Shown: positions 8,044-35,815 of the stretch, piece after piece | How the letters are laid out: each line of letters begins with the position of its first letter | Position numbering within the stretch: the first letter of the stretch is position 1 | Source: a virus | Taxonomy: Duplodnaviria; Heunggongvirae; Uroviricota; Caudoviricetes | Virus record (IMG/VR): IMGVR_UViG_3300033068_000287 | Coordinates: 85,498-122,024 of that record | DNA: 36,527 nt | Reading direction: 5' to 3' (one strand) | Notes under the pieces: generated by a model | Seen by the model: the letters and a program-made list of their open reading frames with translations, nothing else | What the model was told of the DNA's origin: nothing | The model's database searches: none | Translations under genes and position numbers: made by a program

Positions 8044-8616
8044 ATGGTTGATAAAGTTGAATGGCAGTCACCTGCCGCAGGGTCATTAGCATCACTAATT
8101 GAATTACAAGAATGGGTTTCTCCTACGCTTGTTGCTACATTCAATGGTGATGCTAGCCTTGTTGATTATATTCTTTGGTCTGGTACTCTGCCAGAAGATT
8201 TACAACTTATAAACGATTCTAATTCTCCTATTAATACTATTAATGGTATTGTTAGGGAAATGGATGATTACGTTCCTGAATATGTGGAACCTCCAGGATT
8301 TACCTATGATAATGATGATACTGCTGGTGGCGATTATGCTACTTATGGTTCTGCCTTAGCAGGATCAAGAACATTTACATTCACAATTAGAGCATATCAT
8401 TCAGGCGATTATGTTGTGGATTCGAACAATATGTTTGATCCTGATTCATATGCCGATAGAACATTCTCTATAACTGTTCTAAATAACTATAGTTCTGACA
8501 GAGACAGATTTGTTGTCCGATACTTTGAAGGTCAGAAATTATTATATGATGGCAACCAAGAACTTGATCCAGAAGAATGGATCATTCAACAAAAACAAGA
8601 TGGCTATTATGATTAA
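8044..8616 (+). CDS. hypothetical, probably virion/baseplate-associated acidic protein
   Basis: Acidic, beta-rich (WSGTLPEDLQL..., RTFTFTIRA, RTFSITVLN); co-transcribed with PAAR. Confidence 0.55.
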   Translation: MVDKVEWQSPAAGSLASLIELQEWVSPTLVATFNGDASLVDYILWSGTLPEDLQLINDSNSPINTINGIVREMDDYVPEYVEPPGFTYDNDDTAGGDYATYGSALAGSRTFTFTIRAYHSGDYVVDSNNMFDPDSYADRTFSITVLNNYSSDRDRFVVRYFEGQKLLYDGNQELDPEEWIIQQKQDGYYD

Positions 8617-9205
8617 GACCTTTAAAGAATTTATTACAGAAGAAAGAGTATCTGGAGTAACTGTATATCACGGTTCTAACACAAGATTCTCTGCATTCTC
8701 ACAAGATAAAGCAAGAATTCTAAATGATTTTTATGGTGGAGGAATCGCATACTTCACAGACGATAAAAAGATTGGCATTCAATATGCTAAAGCTATGTCT
8801 AAGAAATCTGGCGAACCGTTACTGTATGAATGTAAAATTAATTTAAAAAATTGTTTCGATGTTGATTCTAAATTCACTGGTCCAGAACTAGCTAAACTTG
8901 TAAAGAAAATTGGTACCGAACAGTTTGCTAGGCAAGCTGGTCTTTTAAATTATGGTTCAGACAAATATAAAATTCTTGCACAGCTTGAAAAGGGAACCAT
9001 TGAAATCAATGGCGATAAAGTGTTTAAAGGATTAACAGGAACTATTAGCACAGCGAAAGGTAGAGAGATTCTAAAAGATTTAGGATTTGATGGTCTGCGC
9101 TATAATGGTGGTCTGAATATGAAACAAACGGTACAACACAATGTATATTTACCGTATTATGCTGAATCGATTAAAATTGTAAAAAGATTTAAGGTGAACG
9201 TGTAA
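8609..9205 (+). CDS. ADP-ribosyltransferase-fold protein with T4 capsid-targeting-like N-terminus
   Basis: Likely start is ATG 8609: MIKTFKEFITEE. Motifs VYHGS..F..F, FYGGGIAYFT, GFDGL.Y resemble ART/ART-PolyVal domains. Confidence 0.6.
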   Translation: MIKTFKEFITEERVSGVTVYHGSNTRFSAFSQDKARILNDFYGGGIAYFTDDKKIGIQYAKAMSKKSGEPLLYECKINLKNCFDVDSKFTGPELAKLVKKIGTEQFARQAGLLNYGSDKYKILAQLEKGTIEINGDKVFKGLTGTISTAKGREILKDLGFDGLRYNGGLNMKQTVQHNVYLPYYAESIKIVKRFKVNV

Positions 9206-9492
9206 TGCCTTCAGTTTGTAGATTAGGCGATAGATGTTCTGGACATGCATGTTGGCCACCAAGACCAAACGACCAAGCATCTTCTGATGTTTTCGCTAAT
9301 GGTATAGGAACACACAGACAAGGCGACCATTGGGCTGTACATTGCTGTGGTTCAGAATGTCATGATTCGTTTCTTGCAAGAGGTAGTAAATCTGTATTCG
9401 TTAATGGAAAACAGTTAGCACGAATTGCTGACCCTGTTGCTTGTGGGTCTGCTGTAATTGAAGGTTCTTTGAATGTATTCTGTGGTGGATAA
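9205..9492 (+). CDS. PAAR spike-tip protein (T4 gp5.4-like)
   Basis: RLGD.CSGH.CWPP, ...HCC...CH..LARGS.SVFVNGK.LARIADPVACGS....GS.NVF. Confidence 0.92.
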   Translation: MPSVCRLGDRCSGHACWPPRPNDQASSDVFANGIGTHRQGDHWAVHCCGSECHDSFLARGSKSVFVNGKQLARIADPVACGSAVIEGSLNVFCGG

Positions 9493-14472: not shown

Positions 14473-14808
14473 ATGTCAAAAGATTTTGATGATTTTTTAA
14501 ATATGAATATTGCCGAACAAATTGCTGCGGCAAAGGGATCACACTTTGGTCAAATCGGAACAAGACAATTATTTGGACTTAGATGTTTGGAAGTTAAACC
14601 TATTCCTGACGTAAAGATCAATGGCGTTCCAATGAGACAGAATTTGATTATTTTCGAAAATGCACAGGGAAATAGATTCCAAACAAGATACTCTGGTAAG
14701 ACAAGGTTCGAAGCAGAAAAAGTCTACACATTGAAAGCTACTATTAAAGACCACACTATTGTTCACAATGTTAATACTACATTGTTACATAAGATTTTGA
14801 TTCAGTAG
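14473..14808 (+). CDS. hypothetical OB-fold-like protein with N-terminal FDDFL motif
   Basis: Likely start ATG 14473 (MSKDFDDFLNM); the upstream part of the track ORF overlaps dut; HFGQIG...ATIKDH...T.L pattern. Confidence 0.6.
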   Translation: MSKDFDDFLNMNIAEQIAAAKGSHFGQIGTRQLFGLRCLEVKPIPDVKINGVPMRQNLIIFENAQGNRFQTRYSGKTRFEAEKVYTLKATIKDHTIVHNVNTTLLHKILIQ

Positions 14809-14817
14809 GAAACGAAT

Positions 14818-15336
14818 ATGGCATATGATGATTATTTTGGTAGAATGACTGTAAGTAAAAAAGAAAAAACTACAGCAGCAACATTATCTAAAATAACAGA
14901 ATTATTTTCTCTTATTCATAATATTGATAATGCTTTGTCTAGGGTAGAAGGGTTAGAGAAAAAAACATTTATAGACTATGGGTTTATAAACCCTCTTACT
15001 GATACTAAAGGTATGATAGAGGATTATATTAATGATAGTTTTAATTCTGTTATTGATGCTGCTAAAAAAGATATCGTGGCAAATCTTATAACAGCAAAAG
15101 CTGTAGTTGTTAAAACGCTAGATGTAGAATTCGATGTTGAATACTCTCCAGGAGACGTTATCGGTAAATATAATTCAAACTATGGAACGGAAATTGCAGA
15201 TTATACCAAATTAGTGGCTACGAATTCTATACCAGCTATTACTCCCAGTAAAGGAACACCATCTATTTCCCGAGTCCGTATAGAAGAATTAATAGATAAA
15301 GCGTTATCAGAAGCTAAAATAACGACTACAAGTTAG
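14818..15336 (+). CDS. hypothetical protein
   Basis: TAGGA RBS; 172 aa; converges on the minus-strand cassette. Confidence 0.6.
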   Translation: MAYDDYFGRMTVSKKEKTTAATLSKITELFSLIHNIDNALSRVEGLEKKTFIDYGFINPLTDTKGMIEDYINDSFNSVIDAAKKDIVANLITAKAVVVKTLDVEFDVEYSPGDVIGKYNSNYGTEIADYTKLVATNSIPAITPSKGTPSISRVRIEELIDKALSEAKITTTS

Positions 15337-28723: not shown

Positions 28724-29918
28724 TAGAATGATGAAAGCAACGGACACAGCATTTAAATCTCTGCATAAGTTGTTTAGTGATAATGGCAAATCATTGTGGA
28801 TGGTTGGTGGTGCTGTAAGGGATTTGCAGTCTGGCAATGGTTTTCCTATGGATATTGATTTTTGTACTGATGCTACACCAGACGAAATGAAAGCTATGGT
28901 CAATGATAACTATGGCTGGAAACTGTTCGAAACAGGAATTTCACATGGTACAGTTACATTTATGTCATTGTTGGGATGTTTTGAAATCACAACTTTGCGC
29001 AAGGATGTTGAGTGTAATGGCCGCCATGCGTCTGTTGAATTTACTACATCTTTGAAAGAAGATGCATCCAGACGCGATTTTACATTTAATGCCATGTATA
29101 TGGACATTGATGGTAAAATTTATGACTTTTTTGATGGCCAAACTGATTTGGATAATCAAAAAGTTAAATTTATCGGAAACGCAGAAGATCGTATTAAAGA
29201 AGATGCTTTGCGCATTCTGCGCTATTTCCGCTTTCTGTCTGAATACAATAACTATGATGAAGCAGACTTTGACGCAGTTAAAGCAAATATTAAATTGCTA
29301 GAAGGTGTTTCTGTAGAACGTATTTGGTCGGAAATTTCAAAGGCTGCATGTAAAAATCCAATAAAAATGTCGTCATTTTTTGATTTTATGATTTTGTCTG
29401 GTTCTATGGAAATTCTTGGAATTCCTGTCAGCAAGGACATTAATATTAGCCGTATGAGAGATATCTATTCGACCCGAGGCGAATATCCTGCTATTTTTCC
29501 AGAATTCTTCATGGCAGCAATTTTGCCTGATCCTATCGCAACTTCTAATTTCTGTGATAAGTTTAAAGTATCGAATACTGGCAGAGAAAGAATGATGTGG
29601 TTCAGTAATATGATTGACCGCTATGGTCATAAAGACAGTAAAAACTATTTTGGACCTGATGCAGTAAAAGAGCATATGTATATGGACGGAGATCGTCCTG
29701 AACATTTGCAAGCATTTGCCTCATTTTATGGTGACAGGTTTCTGGAAGAAAGCATTAATCATATTCCTAGACTGAAATTTCCAGTAACAGGTCAAGATTT
29801 GCTGGATAAAGGTTTTACTCCTGGACCGCATATTGGTGAAAAACTGGCTAAAATGAAAAAACGCTGGAAAGTTTCAGATTACACAGCTACGAAAGAACAG
29901 CTAATAAATAGAATTTAA
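28710..29918 (+). CDS. cca: CCA-adding tRNA nucleotidyltransferase (class II)
   Basis: VGGAVRD, DIDF.TDATP, EITTLRKD, DA.RRDFT.NAMY, RI.EDALRILRYFRF, ERIW.E, FPVTG.DL...G..PGP.IG. Confidence 0.92.
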   Translation: MTIHNRMMKATDTAFKSLHKLFSDNGKSLWMVGGAVRDLQSGNGFPMDIDFCTDATPDEMKAMVNDNYGWKLFETGISHGTVTFMSLLGCFEITTLRKDVECNGRHASVEFTTSLKEDASRRDFTFNAMYMDIDGKIYDFFDGQTDLDNQKVKFIGNAEDRIKEDALRILRYFRFLSEYNNYDEADFDAVKANIKLLEGVSVERIWSEISKAACKNPIKMSSFFDFMILSGSMEILGIPVSKDINISRMRDIYSTRGEYPAIFPEFFMAAILPDPIATSNFCDKFKVSNTGRERMMWFSNMIDRYGHKDSKNYFGPDAVKEHMYMDGDRPEHLQAFASFYGDRFLEESINHIPRLKFPVTGQDLLDKGFTPGPHIGEKLAKMKKRWKVSDYTATKEQLINRI

Positions 29919-30948: not shown

Positions 30949-31080
30949 ATGATTACAGTTATTACCAAACAAGAAAAGGTCTATACCACCAGATTGAAAC
31001 AGTCTGCCGACCATTACACCATAACACGATTTAAGCTGTTTGGAATTACAGTCTTAAAAATTATGAATAGGATTAATTAG
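30949..31080 (+). CDS. hypothetical 43-aa protein
   Basis: GAGG upstream; stop abuts the next ATG. Confidence 0.4.
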   Translation: MITVITKQEKVYTTRLKQSADHYTITRFKLFGITVLKIMNRIN

Positions 31081-31626
31081 ATGATTACCGTAACAGATAT
31101 CCAAACAGCATTTGACAAACAAAAACAATTTGATTTTGTCATTAGTCTGATTGATACCGATTGGCATAATGAAGACCATAGACAAGAATTTATGTCAAAG
31201 ATGCGCCCAAAGTTGTGGAGGGTTATGAGGTTTGAAGACGTTATAAACCCTGATGCGGTGGACGCTCCAACAGAACATAATATTCAAGAGTTATTGAATA
31301 TTTGGCAGGAACTATCTGATATCAAAGTCCGTTGTGGCGAACCACCACTAACCGAACAGAACGTTCTAGTCCACTGTCATGGAGGAATTGCACGTTCTAC
31401 AGCATTAACCATTATTTTGTTTATTAAGTTCTTTGGAATGACCGTTCCAGAAGCATTTGAAAAAATGTTAGAGATTCGTCCACAAATGTGGCCTAATGAC
31501 TTGATTTTATCTCATGGTGATGCTATACTAAAGCTAAATGGAGAACTCATTGCTTTTGATAAGGCATGGAAAAAAGAAAATCTAGGCAAATTCTGGATTA
31601 GTCCTCCAGTCAGAATTAAACCATAA
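31081..31626 (+). CDS. Cys-based (tyrosine/dual-specificity-like) phosphatase
   Basis: LVHCHGGIARSTA (CX5R), FEDV acid loop, IRP..WPN. Confidence 0.85.
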   Translation: MITVTDIQTAFDKQKQFDFVISLIDTDWHNEDHRQEFMSKMRPKLWRVMRFEDVINPDAVDAPTEHNIQELLNIWQELSDIKVRCGEPPLTEQNVLVHCHGGIARSTALTIILFIKFFGMTVPEAFEKMLEIRPQMWPNDLILSHGDAILKLNGELIAFDKAWKKENLGKFWISPPVRIKP

Positions 31627-31648
31627 AACACGAAAGAATTATTATATT

Positions 31649-32218
31649 ATGCAATACAGACCAAAAACATTTCTAGCTTCAGACCACCATTTTTTCCACC
31701 AGAAAATCCTTGATTTTGGAATTCGTGGTAAAGTATGGAACAACATTGAAGATCACAATGAAGCACTGATTAATAACCATAACAGTGTTGTTGGTGTTGA
31801 CGATAAAGTATATTTTGGTGGCGATTTGATCTTGGGCGTTGATAGCGCCACAATTGCACTAAAAAATGCTTTGAATGATACAGTTGGCAGAATGAATGGT
31901 AAAAAATATTTGCTATTGGGTAACCACTGTACTCCAGCAAAAGTGGAAACATATGTCAACTCTGGACTTTTTGCCGGTGTTTGTGGACATTGGTTGTTTG
32001 GTGTTGATATTTTCTTTTGTCATGTTCCTGTCCATACTTCACAAATGGGCCGCTGGAAAGTAAACATTCACGGCCATACTCATGAAAGCAATACCAAAAT
32101 TCAAGGAACAGAGAATAATGATCTTAGATACTTTAACGTATCTATGGAAAACATTAACTATATTCCTGTAGAATTGTCCGCAGTTAAACAAATCATGCGA
32201 GATAGAGGGATTCTATAA
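31649..32218 (+). CDS. calcineurin-like metallophosphoesterase
   Basis: SDHHFFH, D.VYFGGD, GNH, H.P, NIHGHTH, NVS.E...Y.P. Confidence 0.88.
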   Translation: MQYRPKTFLASDHHFFHQKILDFGIRGKVWNNIEDHNEALINNHNSVVGVDDKVYFGGDLILGVDSATIALKNALNDTVGRMNGKKYLLLGNHCTPAKVETYVNSGLFAGVCGHWLFGVDIFFCHVPVHTSQMGRWKVNIHGHTHESNTKIQGTENNDLRYFNVSMENINYIPVELSAVKQIMRDRGIL

Positions 32219-32220
32219 TC

Positions 32221-32430
32221 ATGCTGTTCTTTTTTCTTTACTTAATATCTGGCATCCTGTATACTGAATATCAGTGCAAGTTGGTTAAAATTCTTTATCC
32301 AGAAGTTGGAGCAAAGATTACTTGGATTAGCAAAACTGCTATCTTTGTTTTTTGGCCGCTGCTGTTTGTTATTTCAGTTGCCGAAATCATTATTCGCGTT
32401 TTGATCTATATTACCACAGGAAAAAAATAA
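32221..32430 (+). CDS. small membrane protein
   Basis: Hydrophobic segments; FWP motif. Confidence 0.55.
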   Translation: MLFFFLYLISGILYTEYQCKLVKILYPEVGAKITWISKTAIFVFWPLLFVISVAEIIIRVLIYITTGKK

Positions 32431-32431
32431 A

Positions 32432-32761
32432 ATGACTTCTGATTTTGATGATTTTATGATGATGGGGCCTATGGTGTCTAGTTCTTTTGCGCCTATCAGA
32501 ATCAGAAAACCACAATTGACGGAAGAACAAAAAAAGATTCTTGACGATGAATGGAAAGAGCAATACGAAGCAGAAGTAGATTATCTAATAATGAGTAAAG
32601 ATTTACGAATGATGTTATGTACTGGAGCACTTGGAAAATTATTCGATTTATCCGATTATCCATATTATACATCGTTTACTCCTGCCCAATTGGCGAGACG
32701 TAAACTTGCCAAGATCATGGAAGATCAAGATTCTTATCTAAAGGCATCATCTCATGAATAG
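32432..32761 (+). CDS. FxDFM-family paralog 1
   Basis: MTSDFDDFMMM...DEWKEQYEAEVDYL...TPAQLA. Confidence 0.65.
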   Translation: MTSDFDDFMMMGPMVSSSFAPIRIRKPQLTEEQKKILDDEWKEQYEAEVDYLIMSKDLRMMLCTGALGKLFDLSDYPYYTSFTPAQLARRKLAKIMEDQDSYLKASSHE

Positions 32762-33017
32762 TTTTGCTGATTTTATGAATCTACCTGTTATTAATGCAAC
32801 GGCGCCTAAAATACCGTATGATACTTGGTTAGGCTCATATGAGGTTGCATTAATATCATTAATAGAGGACCATGAAGTTTCAGTTTTTGATTTTCTAATT
32901 AAAATACATGGCGAAATGGCCACTCCCAAATCGTATAAAAAGGTCCTTATGGAGTTTTATAATCTTGATGTTGATCCAAGTGTAGCAGCTAAGGCCGTAT
33001 TTGAAGAACATCAATAA
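32754..33017 (+). CDS. FxDFM-family paralog 2
   Basis: MNSFADFMNL...YDTWLGSYEVAL...DPSVAAKAVF. Confidence 0.65.
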   Translation: MNSFADFMNLPVINATAPKIPYDTWLGSYEVALISLIEDHEVSVFDFLIKIHGEMATPKSYKKVLMEFYNLDVDPSVAAKAVFEEHQ

Positions 33018-33027
33018 GAGAGTATAG

Positions 33028-33375
33028 ATGACAACAGAATTTAGTGATTTTATGTCTATGGAAATGCAGAACACTTCTGTTCCTGTACCTGAACCGAAAC
33101 TGGCCGTAGATAAAATGGTCAGTACAACCGTAAGTTTTGCTGATTGGTATAAAGAGTTTGAACTTAGACTTAGAGAATTATGTTCTAAGGATAAAATCCC
33201 TACGGAACCTTTATTGGCGGTAGCGACAAGATCAACGAATGTCCATGCGACAATTTCTCCTAAAGATTTTGTAAGGATGACTCTATATATTAAAGGCCAC
33301 AATCCAAAATTTTCTGCATACGCTATCTATAGTCAAGGTTCAGGATATATGACCTCTAGAAAGAAACCAAAATAA
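33028..33375 (+). CDS. FxDFM-family paralog 3
   Basis: MTTEFSDFMSM...FADWYKEFELRL...ISPKDFV. Confidence 0.65.
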   Translation: MTTEFSDFMSMEMQNTSVPVPEPKLAVDKMVSTTVSFADWYKEFELRLRELCSKDKIPTEPLLAVATRSTNVHATISPKDFVRMTLYIKGHNPKFSAYAIYSQGSGYMTSRKKPK

Positions 33376-33662
33376 TGACGAATGTTAACGAATTTGACGA
33401 TTTTATGACACTTAGTTTAAATACAGAAGTTGAACGGGGATGGACAGCAGCACCATTTCACGAATGGATGGATAGTGTTGATATTGAAGTGGCTAAATTA
33501 TGTGAGAAAAAAGGACTTAATGTAATTAGTTTTTATAACGTAGTTTTTGGCGAAGATGCGACCTCTGCCGATATTAACGGAGCATTGCACAGACGATATA
33601 TCGAAGATATCTCTCCAAAAAAGACCGCTATACAATTATATGATAGACATTATGATGATTAA
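33375..33662 (+). CDS. FxDFM-family paralog 4
   Basis: MTNVNEFDDFMTL...FHEWMDSVDIEV...ISPKKTAIQLY. Confidence 0.65.
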   Translation: MTNVNEFDDFMTLSLNTEVERGWTAAPFHEWMDSVDIEVAKLCEKKGLNVISFYNVVFGEDATSADINGALHRRYIEDISPKKTAIQLYDRHYDD

Positions 33663-33966
33663 TGAAGAACCTTTAAATTTTAATGATTTTATGGAACTAA
33701 CATGTTCTGTTGCAGATAATACTATGTCGTATGAAAATTGGTTGAAACAATTTCATTACGAACTATCTGTAATAAAACCTATACCTAAAAAGTTTAGATA
33801 TTTTATAACGAAAGATTTAGAAACAAATCAAACTATGCAAGCTGTATTATTGGGAGCATATCAGGCACATATCAGATATGCGGAGCATGGAACACCAAAG
33901 GTTATGGCAGCTAAAATATTAAGTCACTATAAACGACATAAAGAGGAACTAGGATTTACATCATGA
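33652..33966 (+). CDS. FxDFM-family paralog 5
   Basis: Likely start 33652 or 33655: MMINEEPLNFNDFMEL...YENWLKQFHYEL...TPKVMAAKIL. Confidence 0.65.
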   Translation: MMINEEPLNFNDFMELTCSVADNTMSYENWLKQFHYELSVIKPIPKKFRYFITKDLETNQTMQAVLLGAYQAHIRYAEHGTPKVMAAKILSHYKRHKEELGFTS

Positions 33967-34310
33967 CCAATATGTCAGAATTTAGTGATTTTATGAATTG
34001 TGATGTAAGTCATGAACCTGAACCCCCATGTACATTTATGATGCATGACTGGTATTTTGCATACAATACAGAACTCGATAGACTCTATAAAGGATATGAT
34101 ATTAGCGGAAAAATAGATTTTCTTATTCGGTATGTAACTCCTTATGGTGACACCTATTCAGACTTTAAGGACTTAGACGATGCCTTATATAAAAGTGGCG
34201 AACATCCTATTAATGCCGCGCAGCATGTATTCTATAAGTATTGGCGAAACAATAACATACTAAATAGTTGTAACACTCACTTTAACTCAATATTTTGTAA
34301 AGGTATTTAA
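33963..34310 (+). CDS. FxDFM-family paralog 6
   Basis: MTNMSEFSDFMNC...MHDWYFAYNTEL...HPINAAQHVF. Confidence 0.65.
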   Translation: MTNMSEFSDFMNCDVSHEPEPPCTFMMHDWYFAYNTELDRLYKGYDISGKIDFLIRYVTPYGDTYSDFKDLDDALYKSGEHPINAAQHVFYKYWRNNNILNSCNTHFNSIFCKGI

Positions 34311-35047
34311 TGGGTAAAAAGCACAGTAAGAAAACTAACACTAATGATAATTCCAATTGTGGTCCACAAATTAAAAAGAAATTCCATACCAAAGACTTGA
34401 CAAAAATTCAACCTAAAACAAACAATCAAAAGAAACTGATGACACAGTATAAAGACAATCCAGATAAGAGTTTTTTCTTGTCGGGCTCTGCTGGTACTGG
34501 TAAAACGTTTTTGTCTATGTATCTAGCATTAAATGAGGTTGTTGATCCCAACAATGATTTTGATGAATTGATTATCATTCGTTCTATTGTTCCTTCTAGA
34601 GAGATTGGATTCCTTCCTGGCTCTATTGAAGAAAAAACAATGGTATATGAAGAACCTTACGTTTCTATCTGTGATGAACTATTTGAATATTCTAAATCTT
34701 ACGACAATCTAAGAAATGCAGGATATATCGATTTTATTCCTACGTCATTCCTTAGAGGTTCAACATTCAATAACTGTATTATTCTAGTTGATGAATGTCA
34801 GAACATGACGTTCCAAGAATTGGACACTATTATGACCCGTGTAGGAACGAATTCAAAAATCATCTTCTGTGGTGACAGTAGACAATGCGACTTGAATCAA
34901 AAGCGCAATGATCTATCAGGATTTGATGATTTTTATTCAATCGTAAAGCGCATGAAAAAATACTTTTCATTTATTGAATTTGATGCTGATGATATCGTCC
35001 GTTCTGGTATCGTTAAAGAATACATCATCAATAAAGAAGCAAAATAA
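34310..35047 (+). CDS. phoH: PhoH-family ATPase
   Basis: PKT.NQ, GSAGTGKT, RS.V...EIGFLPG..EEK, FLRG.TF, LVDECQN, FCGD..Q.DL, D.VRSGIVK. Confidence 0.95.
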   Translation: MGKKHSKKTNTNDNSNCGPQIKKKFHTKDLTKIQPKTNNQKKLMTQYKDNPDKSFFLSGSAGTGKTFLSMYLALNEVVDPNNDFDELIIIRSIVPSREIGFLPGSIEEKTMVYEEPYVSICDELFEYSKSYDNLRNAGYIDFIPTSFLRGSTFNNCIILVDECQNMTFQELDTIMTRVGTNSKIIFCGDSRQCDLNQKRNDLSGFDDFYSIVKRMKKYFSFIEFDADDIVRSGIVKEYIINKEAK

Positions 35048-35066
35048 ACTAATAAAATTCACGATT

Positions 35067-35103
35067 AAAAAAGAGGGTCTTAATTGGCCCTCTTTTTCTT
35101 TTT
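35067..35103 (+). terminator. intrinsic (possibly bidirectional) terminator
   Basis: AAAAAA-GAGGGTC-TTAATT-GGCCCTC-TTTTTCTTTTT. Confidence 0.8.
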
Positions 35104-35104
35104 G

Positions 35105-35112
35105 TATAAATA
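35105..35112 (+). promoter_or_regulatory. T4-type late promoter
   Basis: Exact TATAAATA directly after the terminator, upstream of the amidase. Confidence 0.75.
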
Positions 35113-35137
35113 GATTTACCAGTATGTAGGAATAAAA

Positions 35138-35815
35138 ATGATTGTAACCCTGTGGCTATGGCTGAAAAATCCTAAACTAAACAGAAAGAATAGACCTCCG
35201 ATGCTAGACGTAATTGACAACTGGCTTTATATTAATAATAAAGCTGTTCAAAAAATTGATTCAACTAAAGATAAGACTTCTCCTGGAAGTAATATCTGCG
35301 ATTATATTATCTATCATTATACAGCATCTACAACTGCAAAATCTGCACACAATAATTACCAAAATCCAGATACAAACGTTAGCTGGCACTTAACTATTGA
35401 TCGTGATGGAAATGTATATCAACTATACGACTTTAGAAAAATTACATGGCATGCCGGTAAATCTGGATGGAGAAAACCAAACGGAACAGTTATTGACGGA
35501 CTAAACAAATTCTCCATTGGAATCGAAATGGTAAATGCTGGTCCACTAACAATCAAAATCGGCCAATATCAAACTTGGTCAGGACAAGTTGTTCCTGATG
35601 TTGATGTTTTCTTTGATAAAAATGGCAATCCATGGCAAAGATATACACCACAACAAATTGCAGCAGCTAAAGCTATTGGACAAACTCTAGCAAGACAATA
35701 TAAATGTATTGATATTCTTGGACATGAACAAATTTCACCAGGACGTAAACAGGACCCAGGTCCTGCATTTGCTGCAACTCTAGCAGAAATTAGACGCTTG
35801 ACATACGGCAGATAA
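35138..35815 (+). CDS. N-acetylmuramoyl-L-alanine amidase (Amidase_2), probable endolysin; alternative start 35201
   Basis: IIYHYTAS, VSWHL.I.RDG, TWHAG.S.W, N.FSIGIEM.N, ILGHEQISPGRKQDPGP. Confidence 0.92.
   Translation: MIVTLWLWLKNPKLNRKNRPPMLDVIDNWLYINNKAVQKIDSTKDKTSPGSNICDYIIYHYTASTTAKSAHNNYQNPDTNVSWHLTIDRDGNVYQLYDFRKITWHAGKSGWRKPNGTVIDGLNKFSIGIEMVNAGPLTIKIGQYQTWSGQVVPDVDVFFDKNGNPWQRYTPQQIAAAKAIGQTLARQYKCIDILGHEQISPGRKQDPGPAFAATLAEIRRLTYGR

Follow-up and report, generated by a model that had tools for sequence, protein, structure and literature searches.

A five-residue N-terminal peptide shared by ten small proteins of an uncultured T4-like phage: a putative docking motif

Ten small proteins of an uncultured T4-like phage open with the same short peptide, F-x-D-F-[M/L/I] (hereafter the tag), which probably serves as a linear docking motif. 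Six of them are encoded by a tandem gene array at positions 32432 to 34310 of the stretch of DNA analysed here (the window: 36,527 nt, positions 85,498 to 122,024 of IMG/VR virus record IMGVR_UViG_3300033068_000287), which makes up the last 36.5 kb of one 122,024-bp contig; the other four are encoded outside the array. As a tentative proposition, we suggest that this phage lineage evolved an N-terminal address peptide of its own, distinct from the canonical capsid-targeting leader and from the clamp-binding tail of T4-like phages, and that the tag would wire at least ten small proteins, among them a diversifying array of six with a new four-helix fold and BRCT and KTSC modules that stand alone, to a single hub in a new, phage-encoded linear-motif network. 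All results rest on this one incomplete metagenomic contig, which is without relatives. Positions are those of the window; positions counted along the entire contig are marked as genome positions.

An N-terminal tag on ten small proteins

All six array genes lie on the plus strand. Member 1 (32432..32761; 109 aa, pI 4.9) has the most diverged body and carries the tag FDDFM at 32444-32458. It is followed by member 2 (32754..33017; 87 aa, pI 4.6; FADFM at 32763-32777), member 3 (33028..33375; 115 aa, pI 9.2; FSDFM at 33040-33054), member 4 (33375..33662; 95 aa, pI 4.6; FDDFM at 33393-33407), member 5 (33652..33966; 104 aa, pI 7.0; FNDFM at 33679-33693) and member 6 (33963..34310; 115 aa, pI 5.0; FSDFM at 33981-33995). 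For member 5, we took as the start the ATG at 33652 that overlaps the stop of member 4, rather than an upstream TTG; a public protein library has the same start. Members 1 and 2 overlap by 8 nt, members 3 and 4 by 1 nt (TAATG), members 4 and 5 by 11 nt and members 5 and 6 by 4 nt (ATGA); between members 2 and 3 there is a gap of 10 nt. An earlier reading of the window, made from the letters and open reading frames (ORFs) without database searches (the sequence-only reading), had described six mostly coupled ORFs of 87-115 aa with F-[DASN]-D-F-M within the first 14 residues. This description was borne out, with the tag starting at residue 4-10 in all six.

Scanning the whole contig for the motif revealed that F-x-D-F-[L/I] also opens four small proteins outside the array. 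One of these, a 110-aa protein with no recognised domain (genome 46213-46545; tag F-D-D-F-I), is encoded by a gene that overlaps the end of the RNA ligase 1 gene. Two others contain known domains: a 105-aa BRCT protein (genome 50004-50321; tag F-D-D-F-L; PF00533, E 2e-11, domain from residue 23) and an 81-aa KTSC protein (genome 67087-67332; tag F-A-D-F-L; PF13619, E 4e-17, domain from residue 20), with the gp33-gp59-gp32 run lying ~0.7 kb downstream of the gene for the latter, after one intervening ORF. The fourth is a basic protein of 111 aa (14473..14808, plus strand; pI 9.6) that opens M-S-K-D-F-D-D-F-L and whose gene lies two genes after that for RNase H. A tblastn search with this protein against phage records returned no match, and its single-sequence AlphaFold2 model was beta-rich, low in confidence (predicted local distance difference test, pLDDT, 49) and too poor for a fold search. 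None of the four non-array bodies matched a hidden Markov model (HMM) of the array bodies.

In the 36,341-residue proteome, F.DF[MLI] was observed 11 times against 0.9 expected, and ten of these occurrences were N-terminal against 0.045 expected (Poisson P ~1e-20). With the array counted as one event, five independent N-terminal occurrences stand against the same 0.045 (~1e-9 at the same Poisson rate). A chance origin of the tag is excluded. All ten N-terminal tags start at residue 4-10 of proteins of 81-115 aa, and their extended consensus reads [D/E/N/S]-F-x-D-F-[M/L/I]-x-hydrophobic, with Asp in 10 of 10 and a last tag residue that is Met in six, Leu in three and Ile in one. When a 13-column position matrix built from the ten tags was used for rescanning, nine tagged ORFs (array member 4 was not in the ORF set scanned) scored 27-35 bits, and the next matches fell to ~20 and 11 bits.

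Because F-x-D-F-[L/I] also opens four unrelated small proteins and 10 of the 11 occurrences are N-terminal, we regard the tag as a portable short linear motif, beyond a family signature. It is also a lineage-specific add-on, since phage KTSC homologs align from residue 19 onward only and the sole full-length aligner, that of Salicola phage SCTP-2, is without the tag. No comparable N-terminal tag set was found in 80 IMG/VR loci around homologs (≤56% identity) of the PhoH-like ATPase that is encoded directly after the array, and 43 kb of the T4 early region held no such set.

The sole internal occurrence of the motif, M-S-S-F-F-D-F-M-I-L (20.5 bits; 29367-29405), lies at residue 220 of a 402-aa CCA-adding/poly(A)-polymerase-like protein, where it could be due to chance or form an internal docking loop as in T4 ligase. 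Two further ORFs, both without a family match, may be degenerate tag carriers. A 172-aa ORF right after the tagged 111-aa gene (14818-15336) starts M-A-Y-D-D-Y-F, a look-alike with Tyr for Phe; the other, of 85 aa (genome 54977-55234), shows V-N-D-Y-F close to the N-terminus.

Conservation at the peptide level

Selection acts on the peptide, because the 30 nt on either side of the 15-nt motif show no nucleotide conservation among tag copies and because the codons differ. The last tag codon varies (ATG, ATT, TTA and CTA), and the KTSC copy uses GCA, GAC and CTA, three codons changed synonymously or conservatively with the peptide kept. A shared 5' cassette of promoter, ribosome-binding site and tag, spread by recombination, was rejected for the same want of nucleotide conservation around the motif.

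We find it hardly credible that the conserved element is functionless inheritance or that it works at the nucleotide level, with TTTNNNGATTTTATG or a like stretch serving as a signal in RNA or DNA, for instance as the site of a translational repressor. In the ten tags, TTT encodes each of the 20 Phe residues (P ~0.002, given 73% TTT in the first 15 codons of other genes), and the contig encodes a RegA-like translational repressor, both of which would suit such a signal. It is contradicted, however, by the lack of any conservation outside the 15 nt, by the variable last codon and the recoded KTSC copy, and by a reading frame and a distance to the start codon that are kept on unrelated genes, chance being excluded.

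Array bodies: paralogy, fold and orphan status

The six array proteins are 21-28% identical, and their alignment contains four columns outside the tag that are invariant in all six: one Trp, one Tyr, one Pro and one Ala. The Trp-containing helix and the C-terminal P..A motif picked out by the sequence-only reading match the Trp, Pro and Ala columns. In a leave-one-out HMM analysis, with the tag and the residues preceding it removed, the left-out body scored above all 2000 of its own shuffles in five of six cases and above all but 1 of 2000 for member 1, so that similarity does extend beyond the 5-mer. Pairwise local-alignment z-scores reached 12 for members 2 versus 4 and 4-5.6 for four further pairs. 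Judged by these comparisons, the six genes are true but old tandem paralogs. Searching all 361 contig ORFs with the six-body profile uncovered no further member of the family.

An AlphaFold2 model of member 4, built from the six-sequence alignment (mean pLDDT 78), predicts the tag as a short helix (residues 6-11, pLDDT ~50), followed by a linker (residues 13-20, pLDDT <50) and a four-helix bundle (residues 28-93, pLDDT ~90).

At the curated or E<0.01 level, no match to the array bodies was found in Pfam, PHROGs, NCBIfam or PDB sequences, and blastn of the array against phage records likewise gave none. Exhaustive profile searches (1.84 billion representatives, 5.8 billion clusters) recovered just the six proteins and two long repetitive proteins, which we judged to be spurious matches; one of these, of 675 aa, was matched in nine repeats. 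In word-indexed homolog searches, the array profile, the BRCT protein and the KTSC protein each retrieved nothing but themselves. Fold searches with the member 4 bundle in PDB, BFVD, VIA-align wide, AFDB clusters and ESM Atlas, together with an Atlas feature search, yielded nothing above background: the best Foldseek E was ~1, the VIA-align Z was 6.0 to a designed helical repeat and the TM score was 0.53 to an Atlas cluster, all within helical-bundle noise. Across these sequence and model-based searches, the array body family is orphan and so far unique to this contig, its predicted fold appears to be orphan as well, and the statement of the sequence-only reading that the family was not recognisable holds after sequence, profile and structure searches alike.

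A docking motif and its candidate partner

The tag is short, invariant, exposed, tethered by a linker and grafted onto unrelated folds, and we therefore read it as a linear docking motif; that it docks on a shared partner at all is likely. A constant tag on variable bodies docking on one partner had already been suggested by the sequence-only reading, and the suggestion is strengthened by the same tag on four unrelated folds and by the low-confidence N-terminal segment that precedes the folded domain in the model. In the mechanism we propose, each array protein would have three parts: an N-terminal amphipathic peptide, a flexible linker of ~10-25 residues and a four-helix bundle of ~65 residues. 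The lineage has placed the tag at the N-terminus of five or more small domains that are unrelated to each other (the array family, BRCT, KTSC and two without a recognised domain); all tagged proteins would be tethered to one shared partner, and the diverged bodies would supply different activities or targets. The divergence of the six bodies on a constant tag fits a set of alternative adaptors or inhibitors, including ones for counter-defence. The partner might be the phage's own gp45 sliding clamp, and the array would then consist of alternative clamp-tethered modules made before late gene expression. By sequence and analogy, gp45 is the single most likely partner, although we hold its identification to be doubtful.

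A gp45-type sliding clamp is encoded at genome 38030-38710; its best cultured-phage match is 36% identical, and a search of IMG/VR found zero relatives of it. T4 gp45 binds interchangeable hydrophobic-acidic peptides at the ends of gp43, gp55 and gp33 (PMC2988020), and in T4 DNA ligase L-D-F-L-F on a flexible loop binds the clamp pocket as an amphipathic helix with a Kd of ~10 uM (PMC6212786). The T4 tails S-L-D-F-L-F-G and S-L-D-F-L-Y-E (gp43 and gp55) were confirmed in sequence. The tag shares the D-F-[L/M] core with this motif and, like it, is hydrophobic-acidic, lies on a flexible segment, is predicted to be helical and is portable between unrelated proteins. In the member 4 model, the tag helix, the low-confidence linker and the confident bundle correspond to a short hydrophobic-acidic peptide on a flexible terminus. 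The carriers include nucleic-acid-binding modules, namely BRCT and KTSC (PMC7824862, PMC9503650), and four tagged genes lie beside or near replication, late-transcription or RNA-ligase genes.

The phage polymerase (genome 56784-59378) ends S-F-G-S-M-F-F, where the hydrophobic residues are spaced i, i+3, i+4 like those of F-x-D-F-M, and the phage gp33 (genome 67991-68371) ends N-R-L-D-I. These presumed clamp-binding tails are unusual for the T4 family, and that of gp33 is apparently shorter than its T4 counterpart. A 116-aa orphan (L003:11296-11646, genome 49296-49646), encoded ~360 nt upstream of the tagged BRCT gene, ends G-E-D-F-L-Y-D-E, close to the T4 gp55 tail S-L-D-F-L-Y-E-A-N-D, and may be a C-terminally tagged clamp client.

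The arrangement proposed here, one hub with many small linear-motif clients, resembles the PIP-box/beta-clamp 'toolbelt' of cellular clamps. The clients of those clamps differ in their consensus (Q-x-x-L-x-x-F-F and Q-L-x-L-F) and are known enzymes, as opposed to an orphan paralog array. Some cellular clients, such as Hda, DNA ligase I and UNG2, carry the clamp motif at the N-terminus.

Several points nevertheless weigh against gp45 as the partner. No T4 clamp epitope is N-terminal, each being either internal or at the C-terminus, whereas the tag is N-terminal; its hydrophobic register is i, i+3, i+4 as opposed to i, i+2, i+3, i+4. The tags depart from the T4 clamp consensus [S/T/G]-L-D-F-L-[F/L/Y], with only D-F-[L/M/I] in common, a polar residue before the Asp and a mostly polar one after the aliphatic residue, and alignment on D-F-L puts polar residues at L231 and F235, two of the four positions at which T4 ligase makes contact. 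T4 client motifs are nearly identical to one another, but the tag bears no close likeness to the tails of this phage's own polymerase and gp33, and its aromatic-x-acid-F-aliphatic skeleton fits the capsid leader at least as well as it fits L-D-F-L-F. Ten extra clamp clients would, moreover, be unprecedented in the T4 family. Neither tblastn with T4 gp55 nor a search for phrog_234 detected gp55 on the contig, which leaves no gp55 tail to compare, although this absence is uninformative about the phage itself because the contig is only ~68% complete. A complex prediction for the gp45 trimer with residues 1-40 of member 4, run without controls, scored below the mark and counts neither for nor against binding.

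The transcription unit of the array

The array is followed by a gene for a PhoH-like ATPase (34310..35047, plus strand; PF02562, E 4e-46), the last gene of the transcription unit, which is translationally coupled to member 6: the stop of member 6 overlaps the PhoH start codon by 1 nt (TAATG). A strong intrinsic-terminator-like hairpin (35068..35097, plus strand) closes the array-PhoH unit. After this hairpin and before an amidase gene lies, at 35105, a T4 late promoter that matches TATAAATA exactly. No array gene has a TATAAATA box, even with one mismatch allowed, in the 80 nt before it, whereas the amidase gene and some structural genes are preceded by perfect ones. Because scans of the operon for sigma-70-type promoters gave scores no better than those of shuffles, the suggested timing of expression is drawn solely from the missing late-promoter boxes, a weak argument given that T4 ipII and ipIII have no box close by either.

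Upstream of the array, the same unit contains a dual-specificity phosphatase-like gene (31081-31626) and a 189-aa ORF with no Pfam match (31649-32218). A strongly hydrophobic 69-aa ORF with two predicted membrane helices (32221..32430, plus strand) ends 1 nt before member 1. Over positions 31000-35200, the sole difference among public contigs is an extra A at 35079, inside the terminator hairpin, in some contigs of two runs.

Comparison with capsid-targeting leaders and other explanations

The internal proteins of T-even phages are highly diverse defence proteins whose sole shared, conserved element is the capsid-targeting sequence (CTS; PMC3012670). Like the T4 CTS (of IPI, IPII, IPIII and Alt), the tag is a short N-terminal peptide with an aromatic-x-acid-Phe-aliphatic core on unrelated or highly diverged small proteins, and CTS carriers can also form variable arrays. 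The tag might thus be a second, protease-resistant variant of the capsid-targeting signal that binds the prohead scaffolding core, with the ten small proteins packed into the head and injected with the DNA; by analogy with the hypervariable T-even internal-protein loci, the six-member array would then encode diversified injected anti-defence effectors. The common skeleton of T4 Y-Q-E-F-I, of F-K-E-F-I in an ADP-ribosyltransferase-like protein of this contig and of the tags speaks for this explanation, as do the strictly N-terminal position of the tags, the uniformly small size of their carriers, comparable to that of T4 internal proteins, and the presence of a tandem array of fast-diverging orphans, which fits the internal-protein diversity of T-even phages (PMC3012670). 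The missing late promoter at the array is weak evidence against it, because T4 ipII and ipIII themselves are without TATAAATA within 80 nt upstream. We nonetheless consider packaging by such a variant unlikely. The ADP-ribosyltransferase-like protein (8609..9205, plus strand; PF18760 ART-PolyVal, E 1e-8) has a canonical T4-type leader, M-I-K-T-F-K-E-F-I-T-E-E, with an I-T-E cleavage site, and provides an in-genome reference for the tags; T4 ipII and ipIII start M-K-T-Y-Q-E-F-I-A-E, with the site I-A-E. This [I/L]-x-E site for the prohead protease (gp21) is kept in the in-genome leader, in the T4 leaders and in look-alike N-termini of distant contigs, but it follows the core in 0 of 10 tags, where the position equivalent to the Glu is Leu, Met, Cys or Ile in nine and Pro in the KTSC protein. 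The tags also have Asp where T4 and the contig's own leader have Glu, and mostly Met or Leu where these have Ile; they lack a basic M-K-T type start, and the residue at which they begin varies. Of the array proteins, four are acidic (pI 4.6-5.0) as against pI 9.3-9.5 for T4 IPII and IPIII, and four of the carrier genes lie beside or near replication, late-transcription and RNA-ligase genes. A capsid-targeting signal had been among the candidates of the sequence-only reading and is weakened by the separate canonical leader, the missing protease sites and the acidic array proteins. A clamp-binding motif, another candidate of that reading, is plausible, and its comparison of the array with the anti-defence internal-protein loci of T-even phages is neither strengthened nor weakened. 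From these comparisons, the tag consistently differs in kind from the canonical leader that the phage also possesses.

Docking on a hub other than the clamp strikes us as rather unlikely. Such a hub could be the co-operonic PhoH-like ATPase, for which the array proteins would be substrate adaptors, or host RNA polymerase, the recombination-replication proteins gp32/gp59 or a host takeover target. The general evidence for a docking motif applies equally to these partners, the array is translationally coupled to PhoH in one terminator-ended unit, and the motif bears just a loose resemblance to each of the known T4 signals; yet no specific alternative has positive evidence, and four of the ten carriers are encoded at scattered sites distant from PhoH. 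D-F-D-D recalls the acidic-aromatic tails of single-strand-binding proteins, but such a tail normally needs a free C-terminus, which an N-terminal tag cannot give. We regard it as very unlikely that the tag is an N-terminal degradation or turnover signal for a host or phage protease that would give pre-late proteins a short, synchronised lifetime. An exposed, flexible, aromatic-rich and strictly N-terminal segment on otherwise unrelated proteins would suit a degron, but the strict Asp and spacing suggest a specific pocket and not a loose degron, and the tag is not known to match any N-terminal ClpX or N-end-rule motif.

Two observations concern leaders as such. Some distant T4-like contigs of IMG/VR (L023, L028, L029, L037, L080 and L065) encode proteins with leader-like starts: M-K-K-F-L-D-F-I-Q-E-E in a HAD-like protein of 205 aa (L023:704-1321), the gene for which lies no more than a few kb upstream of PhoH, and M-L-K-F-K-E-F-I-E-E in a protein of 142 aa (L065:8387-8815); both N-termini resemble the capsid leader and keep I-x-E, and from the look of their sequences they are putative leaders. 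In the window, a small Cys-rich ORF (9205-9492) directly follows the ADP-ribosyltransferase-like gene, and by analogy with T4 Alt the pair may form a cassette for a packaged or injected effector.

Genome setting

The contig is classed as linear and ~68% complete (CheckV). On sequence grounds, it is a fragment of an uncultured, deep-branching T4-like myovirus whose lineage is isolated and without close relatives. Its T4-like markers include a gp6-type baseplate wedge gene and further baseplate, hub, tube and fibre genes; it also encodes RegA, a family-B polymerase, gp33 (PF16805), ribonucleotide reductase, RNA ligases, a CCA-adding-type enzyme and PhoH, the best IMG/VR relatives of which are ≤56% identical. 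ORFs like gp44/62 clamp loader, gp41 helicase, UvsX, gp59, gp32 and RNase H were assigned by size, order and terminal sequences. The head module and the terminase are absent from the ~68%-complete contig. The window was present in two DNA runs of one study, with no RNA run listed, and there was no microdiversity to analyse because the two runs showed zero sequence variants. The contig is also rich in RNA-repair and tRNA-related genes: beside two RNA ligases and the CCA-adding-type enzyme, it encodes a HAD 'Swiss army knife' domain, a cyclic-phosphate receiver domain and an RF-1-domain protein.

Discussion

That variable small phage proteins can have an address peptide in common at one terminus is a known principle, exemplified by the T4 capsid leader and the clamp tails. 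The tag described here, as its sequence indicates, fails a defining feature of each. Six diverged bodies on a constant tag make up an architecture that one would expect of modules diversifying for host interaction or counter-defence.

Small orphan genes without a functional handle abound in phage genomes, and here a statistically unambiguous label of five residues, found on no fewer than five unrelated bodies, connects ten such genes with a single presumed partner. If that partner were the sliding clamp, T4-type clamps would have a much larger client 'toolbelt' than the handful now known; if it were the prohead core, the tag would define a second, uncleaved class of capsid-targeting signal and point to new candidate injected effectors. 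Knowing the partner of the tag could give a cellular context to all ten carriers at once.

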